Source: Elsinoe ampelina
Taxonomy: Eukaryota
Reading direction: 5' to 3'
DNA: 64,000 nucleotides
NCBI GenBank assembly: GCA_010093995.1
Contig: ML992505.1
Span: 1,133,147 to 1,197,146, forward strand
Below the pieces are notes generated by a model. It searched no databases. It was not told the origin of the DNA and worked only from the letters and a program-made list of their open reading frames with translations. Both the position numbers and the translations under genes were made by a program. Shown one piece after another: positions 5,735 to 14,703 of the stretch (positions are counted from its first letter, which is position 1; each line of letters opens with the position of its first letter).

Positions 5735-6097
5735 ACGCATGACTTGGAGCGAGTAAATCGAGCGCTTGGGAAGACAACCTCCGGAAAGCGTGCTATCAGC
5801 CGCAGCGCTGAAGTAGCCCACTGGACTCCTTACCACGAATTCTCCACTCGCTGTAACAATGATCCCAATATTGTAGCCAGAGCACGGAGCTGGATCCAAG
5901 AGGAGGTGTACTGGGAGCTTGAAACCCGACACTTTCAAGTGCTGGTCAGCATCATGAACAGCATGGCGTACGAAGGCGACAGCAAGCATACTTCTTCTTT
6001 CCCAGACATGGACGATCTTGAGGACGCATTCGGAAACTTCAAGGAGGCAGTGTACGAGGCATACAAAGTCAGAGGTAAGCGCATTATCCGCCTCTAA
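5714..6097 (+). CDS. Small hypothetical protein (~127 aa)
   Basis: CACCATG start context and protein-like composition. No recognisable domain. Confidence 0.45.
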   Translation: MLPTTFETHDLERVNRALGKTTSGKRAISRSAEVAHWTPYHEFSTRCNNDPNIVARARSWIQEEVYWELETRHFQVLVSIMNSMAYEGDSKHTSSFPDMDDLEDAFGNFKEAVYEAYKVRGKRIIRL

Positions 6098-8379
6098 TCC
6101 TCGCTAACTGATGCCAGATAGGTCCAGGGCAGAGACGGCGCACATGCACCAAATCGATAGCGGTCCATTAGACAATCGAGCCATGAAATCATCCTTGGCT
6201 GACGGCCGGAAGCGCCGCGATGACAGTCGACCGGGAACTCATGGCGAGGCAGAAAAGAGCAAGCGTCGAGTGAACAAGGTTTCCAAAAGGAGAGTCGTTG
6301 GTCACAGTTCCGTTTCCGAGCTACACAAACTTCGCAGGAGCCCACGCCTAGCTCGTCGATGATGAAGCATTGATTCGTGGATCGAAGAAGGTATACGGTG
6401 CAGTAGGTGGCCTATCGATGTGTAATCACGTCCAGCGCAAGCCACACCCATATTTTGTGCATCTATTCAACCAAAGGAAAGTCTGCGGCATGGTAGAATG
6501 CCATGCCTTTGGGGGATTTGAGGATCATGGCTCAGGCCGTGGGCGGCACATGTATGATAGTATCGAGATTTGACAAGTCCTAGTGCGGCACAGCTACGCC
6601 GCCGACAGGGTCATCGATTAGATCATTGCTGAACCAACTTCGTCGCGAGCTGGAATATGCGATGCTCGAATGCATAGACCCGCACTGGAGTTGAGGCCTT
6701 GCACACTACAAAAGACCTGAATGTATTTTATCTTGACAATCTTTCGACGTGTCTGTAGATTTTCCATGTGACCTATTCCCAGAACAACACTAATGCCCTC
6801 CAGTAGATGTGATGCTCTCGGTGCACGTTGGGGAACAAATACTGCTCGCGATGTAGAGTCGGCATGGAGATCATTTGTGTAGCAACGCCGGCAGCAGGAG
6901 TAGCTACGGACACAAGAAATTGCATACACTTGTGTCTAGACAAGTCGCCAATATTGACGAGGAAATCTTACACGGATCTCCTCTCCTCCCTAACGTTCCA
7001 TAGCGCCCGGCATCTCGCTCAACAGACGATTAAACTCCTGCTCGGCATCTTCGACTACATGACCAGGTTGTGGTACATTCCCACCGCGCTGATACCTCAA
7101 GCGTACAATGTCCCCGCTTTCCACCTCTTCTTCGTCGAGCTCACCCTCGCCGAGCTATTGCCACTCTACCCTACTATTTGAGCCTGGTAGTACAAGGATG
7201 GCTGGCGTGGTCCGGGATGCCGCACAGTGCTCGGTTCAGGCAGTCCCTGCACGCACTCCTGGTTACCTCAGTTGTTCATGAAGTTTCATCGCTCAACTTC
7301 TCCGCAGAATCAGTGCTTTGTGTTGGACCTGTATGGCGTACCTGGCAAACGCTACCACTGTCCGCTGATCACGAGCCGGAGTGCGACATTTGTCAGATGC
7401 TGTAGTCCTACCAGTGATCTTTCGACCTGGTTGACGGACTCTTGCGATTAACAAGAATCTGAAATTGGGGATTTAGCAGCTCCGGTCAAATATGAAGTTG
7501 ACAAACGATACCATTCGAGGCGCCATAATTGCAAGCTGAGATACGAGCTGGCCCACCCCAAAGCTCACTGACACGGTCCGTCGATCGTTATCTCTGAGGG
7601 CTCGCGTGTGCTGCCTTGAGGTACTTTTGGTAACTTCGCCACAGATGAAATTTGAGCTTGATGTGAAAGTTTCGGTTTCCTGCCGGGGGATTCCAGTGCA
7701 GTGCTGCGACAAATATTCTAACACTAAATTCACGTGTCGAAAGGACAATGTCAGCCTGACATGACTAGGAGAGGACACCTATTTTGCTTGGGCGCACTTG
7801 AGCCTCGCATCGATGTCTGCAAGACGATTTGACAAGTTGTCGAAATCGGCTCTTGGGCCTGACTGGTAGTACTGGAGCGTGAGAGGTACGGTCGAAGCAG
7901 GAAATCCAGTAGAGACTGCTACGCGTATGCCATTCCGGCAACGAAATTGTGCTCGAAGTAGATAGACCTCAACATGGTATCCTAAGGCCTCTCCATGATC
8001 CGCAGCATTGTGTGAAAGAAATTTGGCCTGCAAGGTGAAGCGGGTCAACAGGAGGAGGACCGACAAAGACGGCGGGCGCAGAGGCTCGAATGAAAGCGGC
8101 CGAAGTGCTGTCCGGCTTCAAAATTGCTCGCTCCTACGTGGTCATCACCCATCTTCATAGCACGAGAATCCACTGGATTTTTCGACGGGAAGGGAGACCT
8201 GTCGCAGACTCTCTGATTCCTACGTGTCATCAAGACGGGTACACAATGAATGCTGAGTGGATGAGCTGATCTGTGAATGGCAGAGCTCGGCTTGTTCAGA
8301 TCCGAGCAAATTTTGCAAAGACCATATACAGTTCAACTTCGCATCCCATCACCCAACTGTGCAGTTGACGCTGCAGCGC

Positions 8380-8614
8380 GCCGGGGTAGCTCAATCGGTA
8401 GAGGTACTGTTCGTCCAATCGACCTCACCAACATGTCTAACCCGTCCCAGCGTGTGGCTCTTAGTAATGAGAGACAACCTCAAGGTACTTCTGCTTGAAT
8501 GCCCCACCGTCTTGAATTAATACTGACACCCCAATTGGTCGTGGGTTCGAGCCCCACCTTGCAAGTTCCGCCCTGTCTCTCCTGTCGAGCTTGTAATAAC
8601 AGTTCACAGCGGCT
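8380..8614 (+). tRNA. tRNA-Lys(CTT) gene or pseudogene split by one canonical tRNA intron and three spliceosomal-type introns
   Basis: Exons 8380-8403, 8451-8463, 8477-8484, 8538-8560 and 8610-8614 join to GCCGGGG TA GCTC AATCGGTA GAGC G TGTGG CTCTTAA CCTCA AGGTC GTGGG TTCGAGC CCCAC CTTCGGC T, a standard 73-nt cloverleaf. A box and B box are intact. Confidence 0.88.
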
Positions 8615-9973
8615 CATTTGACGTCAAAAGCAAAGCTGCTATCACAGCGACGCTTCCTTTTTGTGCTTTTGCTGTCTCAGGACACGTGGAGAAGATTGCG
8701 TCTCTTCCAAGGCAACCGGTGTTGATCTTTTGATCAAAACAAAGTGAGCAAATCTTCGAAGTGGAAGTGAAGGTAGAGTAGTCTATCAGCACGACGACGA
8801 CATGTGCGCGTTTGCCTTTGTTTTGCCAGGCTCCCAAACATTGGCAGCATCGACGGCGAGCATGTGATGCAAAAGGGATAGCGTTTGACCTGGGAAAAGC
8901 AAAAATTGTGGTGAGTGAGCAAATGTGGGTGAGAGCAAATCTTGGTCAAGACTTGGTTGAACAAAGAGGCGGCGGCGACAGTCGCGACTCCAGCACCGAC
9001 GACGATGACTCCGGCGACAGGACAGGCTAACGGCAGTATCGTACGATCTATGCGCCAGAGAGAGGAGAGGTCATCGCCATGAAAGTGCCCAAGAGGTAGA
9101 TGACATGTGACTTCCGGTACTCCTCAGCGGAATCCCGGTAGGTGTACCTCGATCGAATGCATACACTCCAGATGCCACGGCCCTCCGTACATGGAACGCC
9201 TGACCAGAGGCGTCTTGCTGTTTGATTCTGTTCAATGCAAGTCCCAGAACAAGTGGGAACATGATGGCGGGCGATGCGGCTCTGCTCTATAGAAGTCACG
9301 CGTGCTCGGGGCGTCGACATAAGAGCGCTACGCTGAGATCAAGTGGTATGGGATGTGTAGTAGTAACATCGGCAAGCCGAGAGAGCATGTAGTTGGGACG
9401 GGCCGCTCATTGTCACGTGTGCCCATTTAGGAATGCTTGCCGACAACGATCTGGCATGTGATCGTGACAGACGACCGGTCTGAGCGATTGGAGTAGCTTC
9501 GAGACAGAGCAATGCTCGAGTGTGAGATACGCTTCCCAATCAACTGCAGGCTCGGGTAAGAGGTGGGGATTGGATAGCACTCAGACGCAGACCATGCGTA
9601 ACTGGTCACGCAAGTGGGTGGATCGGCATCAAGCAGAGCACGAGCTGCACGGGAGATACGCAAAGAACAAAAAGACAAAAGGGCAGGATGGTAGCTCGCA
9701 GCCAGCCGAACGCAGGACGTCCTTAGCTGACCACATCATGTAATTCATTCGGGAGTGCCTGCAAGGTGTCGAGTTGCATTGTGCAGTGGCGACATGGGCA
9801 AGCTTGAGCCCGTGCTTCCTTAATTGGATGCGGCACCTCAGGCGATCTCCAAGTATGGGTATCTGATCTATCGGAGGGTGTCCCTCGGCGAGCCTTGCAA
9901 GTCCTCTTGCGCTTGTCGATACTTAACCTTGGATCGGGAGGGTGGAGGGTATGAAGCAGTGGCGAACGGCCTT

Positions 9974-12900
9974 TCAGCCAGGCCCGTCCAAGATACCGCT
10001 CTCCTTCAGGCTCTTGAACAACTCAGGCTCGAGGAATTTGCTGATCGTGACGTCCTCAGCAAGTCCTTTCCTCCTTCGTGTCTTTAGTACAAAGTCTCGT
10101 GCGGTGGCTTGAGCGCTTGCTGGTTCCAGTGGGCGGAGCTTGATACTCTTGTCAAGAGGGTCACCAGGGACAATACTCCAGCGGTCGAAGACTAAGCTGA
10201 CCGTTGCTTGACCTTGGCTGTGCATTCTTAGATCAGTCTCGAAGCCGAAGCTGTCGATGACGGGGATCAGACCCTTGACTGAGTACAAAGGTGTGCCAGC
10301 GATGGGACCGTCCTGCAGCACATGCCCTCTACGTCGGGCCAACACAGTGTAGAACGAGCTGACAGCCGTCGCGGGGCCGATCATGCTGCAGCTGTAGACG
10401 GGCTCCATCAGGCGAGGACTGGCCATCAAGAATGAGCTGTAGGCCGCACGGCGTGAGGTTGGGATGATTTGTCCTCCGCCACGAAAGATGGCTTGCTCTG
10501 CAAGCTGAACATCGGTGATCTTGAATTTCGTGTTGCGAATTGGCTCTTCGCACAGTGGTCCTTCACGGGTAGCCCAGCTGAAGCCTTGACGAATCGTGTC
10601 ACGTACGCTTCGCAGAGTCTTTTGGTCCACTTCTGAGGGGAGCGTATCGTTTTGAAGGATGTTTGGACCCGTATCGTCCGGTCCAAAGGCCCAGATATTC
10701 CGCGAGGCTAGAAGGTCATAGCCGTAGTTCTGCTCGAAGAACTTGCCGACCACCTTGATGGGATCTCTGATCTTGACCTTTCCAGATTCGATATCCTGAG
10801 CAATACCGTCATCCAGCGGCTCAGCGACCATTGTCAGCTTGTTCTTCTTGTTCGGAGTCAGAGCATAACATTGGATGGCGGAGGTCTCGACGACCGTCTC
10901 ACAGAACCGGGTGACCGGATCGGAGACCTTGATGTCCATGTTTGCATAGATCTTGCGCAAATCATGAAGCACGCAATCCATGTAGAGCTCTCCGGTACCA
11001 AGGACGATGTGTTCGCCAGACTCTTCTACCTTGGTCGTGACCAGAGGATATGATTTGTTGATCTTTCGAAGACCGTCGAGCATCTTCGGGAGCTCTGAAG
11101 GATTGACTGGCTCCACAGCAACCTTGAAAACGGACTCGAAGAAATGAGTGATGGGTCGGAAGATGTAGGCCTCTTCCCCAGACGGCAACTCAGGCGCAAC
11201 GAGAGTAGCTGTCTTGACAATGCTGTTGTCAACTCCACCGAGAAGCACGAAATTTCCAGCAGGCACACCCGAGACAGGAATGTGATACCTCGACTCTGCT
11301 ATCCAGGTGTCAGATATAGTCGCATTGACCATGTCTTCCTCGTCTTCGATTGTGTAGCCTTCACCAAGCACTCGTACTTGGTCTCCAGGCTTTGCGGTGC
11401 CGCTCAGAACTCGTCCGAAGGCATTGAAACTGGAAGCGTCCTCGGTAGTGAAGAGTTTCGACACATGTACGACCAGAGGGCCATCTTGATCACATTTGAG
11501 CATTGCTTCTGCCGTCTTTGTGTCCGTAGGTCCGGTGTAGTAGTTCTGGAGCTTTTGCTTTGCTCCTTCGATGGGTGATGGCACATGTGCTACCAGCATA
11601 TCGACCAGTCCCGTCGCAGGGCCGAAGAACTGCTCACATGCCAGCTTGAGTAATTCCTTTGCATTCGATCGGAGCTGTGTAGGTTTGAGATAGATGCCCA
11701 GACTTTCCAGAGTTTCCTTGAGCTCATCCGGCTTTTCCGAAATGGTGTGCGAGAAGAGTTTGTAGATAGGTTCGAGCACAAAATTGACAAAGGACCGCTT
11801 ACTGGATGCGTCGACGCTCTTTCGGGTGAATTTGCGGGTGCTAGGAGTGTAGAAGATGTCGCCCCAAAGTCTTCGGCTGAATTCGGGAACATCGAGAGGT
11901 GAATTTGAATAGGAATCGGCGTAGAGCTGGGCGAAGGATGGCAGCGTGAAGCTCCAACCAAGACTAGTGCACGCGAATGCGACATTGCCCCTTTCCGGGC
12001 TCAGTCTTCGAGATTCTCCCCGACCTGGAATCGTATTCTCGATCACTGTGTTGACTTCTTCAATGACGTGTTTGAGCTTGAAGTAAGCATCTGACGGAGG
12101 CAGTCTGAGTTCCACGATCAGACGGTCCATCTTATTAACGACCAGAACGAGTGGGAGATCTTCCAGTACTGCATGCTTGATGGCCTGTTCCGTAGTCGTT
12201 TGTACGCCTTCAACCACGTCTACCACGAGAACCACGCCGTCAACCAGACGCATTGAAGCGGCCACTTCATCGGCGAAGTTTACATGCCCAGGAGTGTCGA
12301 TCATGTTGATCAATTGTGACTTTCCTTTGGTGCCTTGTAACACCAAGCTCATTGGCGCTGCCTTTGTCGACAATCCGCGTTCCCTCTCCACTACATGTGT
12401 GTCTGTGTATCGTAGCTGCTCGTCTCGTTGGCGTCCTTTGCGATCGTCCAGTCTGTTCGTGATGTCGTGAGTCTGCAGAACGAGCATATCTACGAGTGCA
12501 GTCTTTCCGTGATGCAAATGTCCGACGAGTGCCACATTCCGGACTTGCTCAGGTAAGTTCATAAGATCCGTCATAAAGTCGCGGCTGTAGTAAACAGGGG
12601 GAAGATCTGCCTCCTGTACTGTGTACTTCTTTTGCTCAACCGGCGCAATAATTGGCTGTGCCAAAGACTGTGTGTCTTCCTCCTGCACCAGCGTCTCGAC
12701 ATCCTGACCGTAAACTTGTGACGCGCTGGGGTAGTATTGCTTGTCTTCATGGAGTACCACTGCGTTCGACGGGCCATCTGATTCTTGTAAGCTCAGAACT
12801 AGAGGTTAGCTCGCAAGTTCTTACCATCGACTTCCATCAACTGTTGGTCGTTGACCTCTTCAGCCTCAGCTTCCTCATCATCGTCGAGGTACTGATTGAC

Positions 12901-13029
12901 ATTGGCTGGGGCGGCATCTTCCTCTTCTGACTCGTCGACCTCGCCAATGTAATTACCGAACCTGCACCATGTCAGTCGCGTGGTCCTGAAGGATGGATAG
13001 AGAGCTTACTCGTCATATAGGTTGTCCAT
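9974..13029 (-). CDS. SNU114: U5 snRNP GTPase Snu114/Cwf10 (EFTUD2, EF-2-like)
   Basis: N-terminus MDNLYDEFGNYIGE after splicing introns 12962-13009 and 12778-12824. GHLHHGKT, DTPGHVNF, NKMD and EF-2-like domains present. Confidence 0.97.
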
Positions 13030-13314
13030 GGTGTCGACTGAACGAACGCTGAAGACAACGCTGACCTGATTGCTTGCAGTGACCTCCGAACTTTTGAGGT
13101 CCCGCAGCTTCACCGCCTTTGATCCCGGTCGCGGGCATGACGGAGCGGTCGGTGCTTTCTGCCGAATTGGAGCTCGTACGATCAGAACAATTTCCAGACT
13201 CAAAATTGTTGAGGGGAACACACATAGTTGAGCAATTCCCTCTTCACTTACACTAATACATTCACACAGTCTTCCTGCAATCTTCTATCTCCGCCCTATC
13301 TCACGAACAACAAG

Positions 13315-14703
<1,389 letters not shown>

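Follow-up and report, generated by a model that had tools for sequence, protein, structure and literature searches.

Recent reviews of transfer RNA (tRNA) splicing hold that the process does not use the spliceosome (PMC13149111), and spliceosomal introns are described as a feature of messenger RNAs (mRNAs) and other RNAs made by RNA polymerase II (PMC12530127). The non-coding RNAs listed in a further review as hosts of spliceosomal introns are the U1, U2, U5, and U6 small nuclear RNAs (snRNAs) and ribosomal RNA (rRNA); tRNA is not on the list given there (PMC5855946). Here we describe a tRNA-Lys(CTT) gene of the grapevine fungus Elsinoe ampelina, located on the forward strand of contig ML992505.1, which very probably harbors three short spliceosomal introns together with an intron of the tRNA endonuclease type. 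The gene lies at positions 8380-8614 of the 64-kb stretch that was analyzed (the window), and all coordinates given for it and its neighborhood are positions within this window. A full-text literature search, with most subscription journals outside its reach, gave no account of a tRNA gene with spliceosomal introns.

The gene resembles the U6 genes of Schizosaccharomyces pombe and other fungi, in which short GT-AG introns with branch signals reside inside a small structured non-coding RNA gene. U6 is an RNA polymerase III gene, and its introns occupy conserved functional positions and have non-conserved bodies (PMC5855946). However, unlike the snRNAs, tRNA is not part of the spliceosome, and an explanation by reverse splicing into a nearby snRNA is not directly applicable. 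Further differences to the snRNA genes are the three long introns in a single gene (six in a related gene), exons as short as 5-8 nucleotides (nt), and an endonuclease-type intron in the same gene. Spliceosomal introns also occur in ascomycete ribosomal DNA (rDNA; Bhattacharya et al. 2000, as cited in PMC5855946), which is likewise a non-coding RNA gene of Pezizomycotina and, as is probable for the gene described here, not transcribed by RNA polymerase II. There, the host is an rRNA gene of RNA polymerase I, whereas here it is a gene of only 73 nt in which the introns push the internal promoter boxes away from each other.

With regard to intron number and placement, the gene is similar to tRNA genes described for Cyanidioschyzon merolae (PMC3728597), nucleomorphs, and archaea, in which several introns are distributed over D-arm, anticodon-arm, variable-loop, T-arm, and acceptor positions and to which standard finders are blind. 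Introns of this type are recognized by way of a bulge-helix-bulge and removed by the tRNA endonuclease. In contrast, this motif was present in none of the ten long inserts that we compared (47-54 nt; three from the window, six and one from two related metagenome loci, L001 and L002), while spliceosomal signals occurred in all of them. A canonical nuclear intron at tRNA position 37/38 is present in all three genes, with 13 nt in the window, 11 nt in L001, and 16 nt in L002; the three long inserts of the window gene differ from it in position, length, and signals. Introner-like elements, a source of recent spliceosomal intron gain, have their hosts in the same fungal class, the Dothideomycetes (van der Burgt et al. 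2012, as cited in PMC5647799). However, the tRNA introns displayed no similarity to each other, to the window, or to L001 or L002 (best E value 0.13), a test that is weak given its scope of 64 kb.

A tRNA-Lys(CTT) gene in five segments

The coding sequence of the gene amounts to 73 nt and is distributed over five segments separated by inserts of 47, 13, 53, and 49 nt (Table 1). A preceding sequence-only reading had assigned coordinates and motifs to 8380-8614, and every one of these was present in the sequence. Upon in silico excision of all four inserts, ARAGORN called tRNA-Lys(ctt), and the same tRNA with an intron, i(37,13), was called when the three long inserts were excised and the 13-nt insert was kept. 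The 73-nt cloverleaf was thus recovered as such, but the initial description of it as exact went slightly too far: positions 29:41 form a U.U mismatch, and two of the acceptor-stem pairs are G.U. The invariant tRNA elements and the anticodon loop are all retained in the product.

As had been expected from the sequence, standard finders miss the gene. No tRNA was detected by ARAGORN at the raw locus, and the entire raw 64-kb window yielded zero tRNA genes. Similarly, no matches to Rfam were obtained for the raw window at the gathering score, and the single match at E ≤ 10 in the raw region 8250-8750 was to a non-tRNA family. The 13-nt insert had been interpreted as a standard 37/38 intron, which is in full agreement with the ARAGORN call. 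Its GAGAG can pair with CTCTT of the anticodon loop, and the anticodon-intron pairing is present in the fold. By position, short length, and anticodon pairing, this insert is a canonical 37/38 tRNA intron.

Table 1. Features of the split tRNA-Lys(CTT) gene and its immediate flanks (positions within the 64-kb window)
Feature	Position	Strand	Remarks
Probable 5' leader	8364-8379	+	RNA contig of run X3 begins at 8364, 16 nt 5' of tRNA position 1
Exon 1, tRNA positions 1-24	8380-8403	+	acceptor 5' strand, D-stem 5' strand, D-loop, first 3 nt of D-stem 3' strand
A box	8387-8398	+	inside exon 1
Spliceosomal-type intron, 47 nt, GT..AG	8404-8450	+	tRNA position 24/25; donor GTACTG, branch CTAAC 10 nt before 3' end, end CAG
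Exon 2, tRNA positions 25-37, anticodon CTT	8451-8463	+	
Canonical tRNA intron, 13 nt, at 37/38	8464-8476	+	ARAGORN i(37,13)
Exon 3, tRNA positions 38-45, 8-nt micro-exon	8477-8484	+	
Spliceosomal-type intron, 53 nt, GT..TG	8485-8537	+	tRNA position 45/46; donor GTACTT, branch CTGAC 11 nt before 3' end, end TTG
Exon 4, tRNA positions 46-68	8538-8560	+	T-arm, first 3 nt of acceptor 3' strand
B box	8544-8554	+	inside exon 4
Spliceosomal-type intron, 49 nt, GC..AG	8561-8609	+	tRNA position 68/69; donor GCAAGT, branch ATAAC 10 nt before 3' end, end CAG
Exon 5, tRNA positions 69-72 and discriminator T	8610-8614	+	
Probable RNA polymerase III terminator	8658-8670	+	T5 at 8658-8662 and T4 at 8667-8670

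Removal of the long inserts in RNA contigs

Assembled contigs (not raw reads) from four sequencing runs out of 12 listed (X3, X4, X5, and X7) were compared with the region 6000-13500. None of the 12 is registered as an RNA run. Contigs of X3 contained all three junctions predicted from the sequence (8403/8451, 8484/8538, and 8560/8610). The first was observed as 8401>8449, with 47 nt skipped, a flanking repeat of 2 nt, and a depth of 115; shifting the cut by +2 yields the GT..AG segment 8404-8450. The second, 8483>8537, skips 53 nt, is flanked by a 3-nt repeat, and had a depth of 99.8. The third, 8560>8610, skips the 49-nt GC..AG segment without any flanking repeat at a depth of 25.4. The shorter sides of the three junctions are 38, 24, and 24 nt long and match 8364-8401 and 8537-8560, indicating that the pieces fit a single spliced molecule carrying the leader and trailer of the locus itself. 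In X3, a sequencing adapter immediately precedes 8364, which places the end of an RNA molecule 16 nt upstream of tRNA position 1.

X3 behaves as RNA, since five introns of neighboring genes are skipped in its contigs as well (6072>6116, 7458>7512, 12777>12825, 12959>13008, and 13378>13430) and since a poly-T loose end at 9689 coincides with the 3' end of a minus-strand gene. X3 RNA from which the long inserts were already gone still contained the leader, the trailer, and the 13-nt intron, and among the junctions of the runs examined no contig lacking 8464-8476 was reported. Removal of the long inserts, and its occurrence ahead of that of the 13-nt intron, is shown by the RNA contigs. No lariat and no mature or charged tRNA was seen. 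X4, X5, and X7 had no cover at 8008-9513 and were 29-41 times shallower than X3 on the neighboring gene (5.7-8.0 compared to 234.5); their zero cover at the tRNA locus is no evidence for or against splicing.

Intron signals of the long inserts

The five RNA-verified mRNA introns of the window have a length of 43-53 nt, GTAAG-like donors, CTAAC, CTGAC, CTAAT, or CTAAA branches, and YAG ends. The three long inserts of the tRNA gene, at 47-53 nt, fall within this length range and carry the same kinds of signals, as the sequence-only reading had maintained. Across the ten long inserts, GT was found at the 5' end in nine and GC in one. The branch motif conforms to CTRAY in nine and reads ATAAC in the remaining one, and in all ten the branch A is located 10-12 nt before the 3' end. 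Eight inserts end with AG (two of the three in the window), which is preceded by a pyrimidine in seven of these eight.

Two inserts deviate at the 3' end. At 8485-8537, for which the donor and branch signals claimed earlier were corroborated, the TTG end had been listed without being recognized as an anomaly: of the four equivalent cuts compatible with the RNA junction, not one leaves the insert with a terminal AG, and it ends with TG under the GT cut. The last intron of L001 would end with CG. Such non-AG ends are unusual for the spliceosome. In both of these introns the branch A is positioned 11 nt from the 3' end, suggesting that the branch distance may help to set the 3' cut. Self-splicing group I or group II introns were also considered and rejected on the basis of size alone, since inserts of 47-54 nt would be too small.

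Blind removal of intron-like segments from the window

As a control for chance, we collected candidate segments from both strands of the window, defined as 40-70 nt in length, starting with GT or GC, ending with G, and having a branch-like motif 10-12 nt before the end. The 2,292 candidates were linked into 7,593 chains of up to seven segments separated by 'exons' of 4-45 nt; each chain was excised and the product was submitted to ARAGORN. A tRNA spanning every junction resulted from 14 of the 7,593 chains. All 14 were located at 8404-8609 and none elsewhere in the window, so that the blind chain scan yielded no second split tRNA there. Among the positive chains, ARAGORN called Lys-ctt for eight, Thr for three, and Leu for three. 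They include exactly the set of inserts identified initially, which gave Lys(ctt) with i(37,13). In addition, the window was scanned for T-arm hairpins; five were found, and only that at 8541-8557 has a tRNA-like context.

Related split tRNA-Lys(CTT) genes in metagenome contigs

Metagenome contigs were scanned with the border between exon 1 and intron 1, a pattern that only versions of the gene with this intron can match, so that the matches carry no information on the frequency of intron-free versions. Two loci were obtained, L001 and L002. Both are tRNA-Lys(CTT) genes and both have an intron at the D-stem site 24/25, as does the window gene. L001 (642-1030) contains six long introns of 52, 54, 51, 49, 50, and 49 nt at 7/8, 24/25, 29/30, 47/48, 59/60, and 67/68, five of them GT..AG and one GT..CG, and an additional 11-nt intron at 37/38, leaving exons of 5-17 nt. 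Its intron at 59/60 splits the T-loop and the B box, and that at 7/8 lies between the A box and the 5' strand of the acceptor stem. In L002 the only long intron is that at 24/25 (52 nt, GT..AG), and the intron at 37/38 has 16 nt. The spliced products are identical to that of the window at 68 of 73 (L001) and 57 of 73 (L002) positions, and ARAGORN identified all three products as tRNA-Lys(ctt). From raw L001, nothing was obtained by ARAGORN or Rfam; raw L002 was mis-parsed by ARAGORN and matched the Rfam tRNA model with 41.5 bits. In a blind chain scan of L001, 56 chain variants were positive, all located at 642-1024. Several isotypes were called among them, indicating that ARAGORN alone cannot fix the exact exon borders of L001; the exon set given here was chosen by its match to the RNA-supported product of the window.

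Comparison of the three products showed that 7 of 21 stem pairs vary and that six of these seven are changed on both sides and stay paired, a covariation resting on three sequences only. The covarying pairs include 4:69, 5:68, and 6:67, which are separated by the last intron of the window gene, and 50:64, which is separated by the T-loop intron of L001. The intron bodies at the same or neighboring positions, in contrast, had identities of 0.57-0.65 compared to shuffle means of 0.50-0.55 and, signals excepted, are no more alike than shuffles. Thus, as had been anticipated for orthologous loci, the donor, branch, and acceptor signals are retained in both relatives despite diverged intron bodies. 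No evident coding frames were found in the flanks of L001 and L002.

The first 8 nt past the acceptor stem are the same, TCAATTCC, in L001 (1030-1037) and L002 (33-26, minus strand), and the window trailer differs. Unlike these identical trailers, the tRNA bodies of L001 and L002 match at just 60 of 73 positions. A scan of viral contigs for the gene pattern gave no matches. A looser pattern produced 43 matches in 41 loci from bacterial metagenome-assembled genomes (MAGs; L003-L043), and ARAGORN placed a tRNA over none of them. The three MAG loci that were inspected carry 5' tRNA copies that break off behind the D-arm and are unrelated to the split tRNA. Most of the MAG loci among those listed have a complete tRNA gene nearby, mostly Ala-TGC or Thr-TGT, and these copies are possibly remnants of integration sites.

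Transcription of the locus

Runs of five or more T occur 22-45 nt 3' of the gene in all three loci, and none occurs inside any of the genes. In L001 there is a T6 at +23 and in L002 a T8 at +22; the runs of the window are listed in Table 1. The depth of X3 was 3.0 in 8008-8258, 68.6 in 8259-8509, 93.5 in 8510-8760, and 8.6 in 8761-9011, and thus falls about tenfold past the T-runs. The transcription unit has a size of approximately 300 nt and begins with the 16-nt leader. Both promoter boxes, A and B, are intact in the window gene and in L002. Based on the T-run terminators, the short leader, the small unit, and the drop in depth, we favor RNA polymerase III as the enzyme transcribing the locus, with moderate confidence. 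Avoidance of T-runs within the introns themselves is uninformative as a test for RNA polymerase III, as 38 mRNA introns of the window predicted by regular expression contain a T4 in six cases and a T5 in none.

Surroundings of the locus

The adjoining minus-strand gene (9974-12805) encodes a homologue of the spliceosomal GTPase Snu114/U5-116K, which is 100% identical to an Elsinoe ampelina protein in NCBI and UniRef and 93% identical to proteins of Elsinoe australis. Its juxtaposition to the split tRNA gene is probably a coincidence. The tRNA gene is preceded, at a distance of about 100 nt, by a weak match (8250-8286) to the C/D-box small nucleolar RNA-like family sR46 (13.9 bits, E = 1) in a region of low depth, which is probably due to chance. 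Elsewhere in the region covered by the contigs, the donor at 6072 is used with different acceptors, 6116 in X3 and X4 and, at a spacing of 4 nt, 6120 in X5 and X7, representing either an alternative acceptor or a difference between strains. G>T differences to the window occur at 7598 (X4, X5, and X7) and at 11284 (X4 and X7), neither of them in X3, and are probably strain variation.

Proposed maturation pathway

Taken together, we consider it very likely that the locus is a working nuclear tRNA-Lys(CTT) gene with three short spliceosomal introns at 24/25, 45/46, and 68/69 and an endonuclease-type intron at 37/38. A short, separate transcript would begin at about 8364 and mostly end at the T-runs at 8658-8670, probably as the product of RNA polymerase III. 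The spliceosome, to which the donor and branch signals point as the excising enzyme, would then remove the three introns of about 50 nt while the leader, the trailer, and the 13-nt intron remain in place. By analogy with the standard fungal pathway, RNase P and RNase Z would subsequently trim the ends, CCA would be attached, and the 13-nt intron would be excised by the tRNA splicing endonuclease and ligase, presumably giving rise to a mature tRNA that is charged and functional. With three spliceosomal introns and one endonuclease intron, a single 73-nt RNA would require both nuclear splicing systems.

Alternative explanations

The same structure and splicing might also be embedded in a capped precursor made by RNA polymerase II and spliced in the course of transcription, from which RNase P and RNase Z would release the tRNA, comparable to the tRNA-like pieces of some long non-coding RNAs. 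We regard this as unlikely, although several observations weigh against RNA polymerase III. A low-depth X3 contig joined at 8610 extends to 9065, beyond the T-runs; the window and L001 both have ATATA-like motifs 40-56 nt upstream; and poly(A) tails are present in the library that covers the locus well. Moreover, 145 nt lie between the A and B boxes of the window gene. L001 has a B box split by an intron and an A box 59 nt downstream of tRNA position 1, so that a start placed by TFIIIC would fall within the gene, a poor fit with standard TFIIIC-directed initiation. On the other hand, the T5-T8 runs shortly after the gene in all three loci with none of T5 or longer inside, the sharp loss of depth beyond them, the small unit that starts close to the tRNA, and the A and B boxes that are intact in two of the genes are in better agreement with RNA polymerase III.

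Three further explanations would dispense with the functional tRNA, with the spliceosome, or with the splicing itself. The RNA may be made and spliced and not work as a tRNA, stemming from a decaying, intron-riddled tRNA-derived gene or representing a regulatory non-coding RNA. The contigs show a precursor with the 13-nt intron kept and include no mature tRNA, the U.U at 29:41 of the anticodon stem is shared by the window gene and L001, and one window intron has a non-AG acceptor. However, six compensatory changes on both sides keep the stems paired over three lineages, the invariant elements, the anticodon loop, and the canonical intron with its anticodon pairing are retained, the splice signals are maintained between diverged intron bodies, and too few tRNA genes were detected in Elsinoe ampelina in a published survey; we therefore consider this explanation improbable. 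Cleavage of the long inserts by the tRNA splicing endonuclease and ligase, without any spliceosome, would have a precedent in the multiple and ectopic introns of Cyanidioschyzon, nucleomorphs, and archaea (PMC3728597), and would be compatible with the missing AG at 8485-8537, which, together with the CG end in L001, is not usual in spliceosomal splicing. It is rendered highly improbable by our own simple positional test, in which the full 4-bp central helix of a bulge-helix-bulge was found in none of the ten inserts in either orientation, by the GT or GC start of all ten and their branch motifs at a distance of 10-12 nt to the 3' end, and by insert lengths equal to those of the mRNA introns of the organism. 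Finally, the junctions could be artifacts of template switching by reverse transcriptase, of mis-assembly, or of contigs from an intron-less paralogue. The RNA support stems from assembled contigs of a single run whose RNA label is only presumed ('RNA?'), though backed by the neighboring splice junctions, the three tRNA-locus junctions were flagged 'between: not known' owing to their short sides, and two of them are flanked by repeats of 2-3 nt. Yet one junction has no repeat, the junction contigs include the 16-nt leader and the trailer of the locus itself, donor, branch, and acceptor signals are found at all three, a cloverleaf results from joining them, and the same gene architecture recurs in two unrelated metagenome assemblies, which makes an artifact the most improbable of these explanations.

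Fungal tRNA shortage and wider implications

In a kingdom-wide survey, Elsinoe ampelina was one of 11 fungi whose anticodon number lies below 30, the presumed minimum (PMC8826637). According to its supplement, 25 tRNA genes with 22 anticodons were found in Elsinoe ampelina, compared to 74 genes with 45 anticodons in Myriangium duriaei. Low values are also listed for two assemblies of Cenococcum geophilum (16 and 30 genes; 16 and 25 anticodons), for Teratosphaeria nubilosa (25 genes; 19 anticodons), and for Mixia osmundae (35 genes; 29 anticodons). The authors of the survey suggested adaptation to lifestyle or import of tRNA as reasons for the low counts (PMC8826637). For Elsinoe ampelina, tRNA genes hidden by spliceosomal introns may be a simpler account of the shortage than either. 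We see an even chance that most nuclear tRNA genes of this species are each cryptically split by up to six spliceosomal introns, and that the same probably applies to other fungi with too few tRNAs, for example Cenococcum and Teratosphaeria. Against such an extension stands that the data are limited to this locus and that ordinary tRNA-Lys(CTT) copies may exist elsewhere in the genome.

If the extension holds true, sub-minimal anticodon sets would be an artifact of detection, neither genome reduction nor tRNA import would be needed to explain them, and annotation pipelines for tRNA would need split-aware searches. Translation would depend on the spliceosome acting on short tRNA precursors probably made by RNA polymerase III. 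The locus would provide a natural system to study how the spliceosome handles probable RNA polymerase III transcripts, exons of 5 to 8 nt, and non-AG acceptors, and it would imply that even the most constrained small RNA genes of fungi are open to intron gain.

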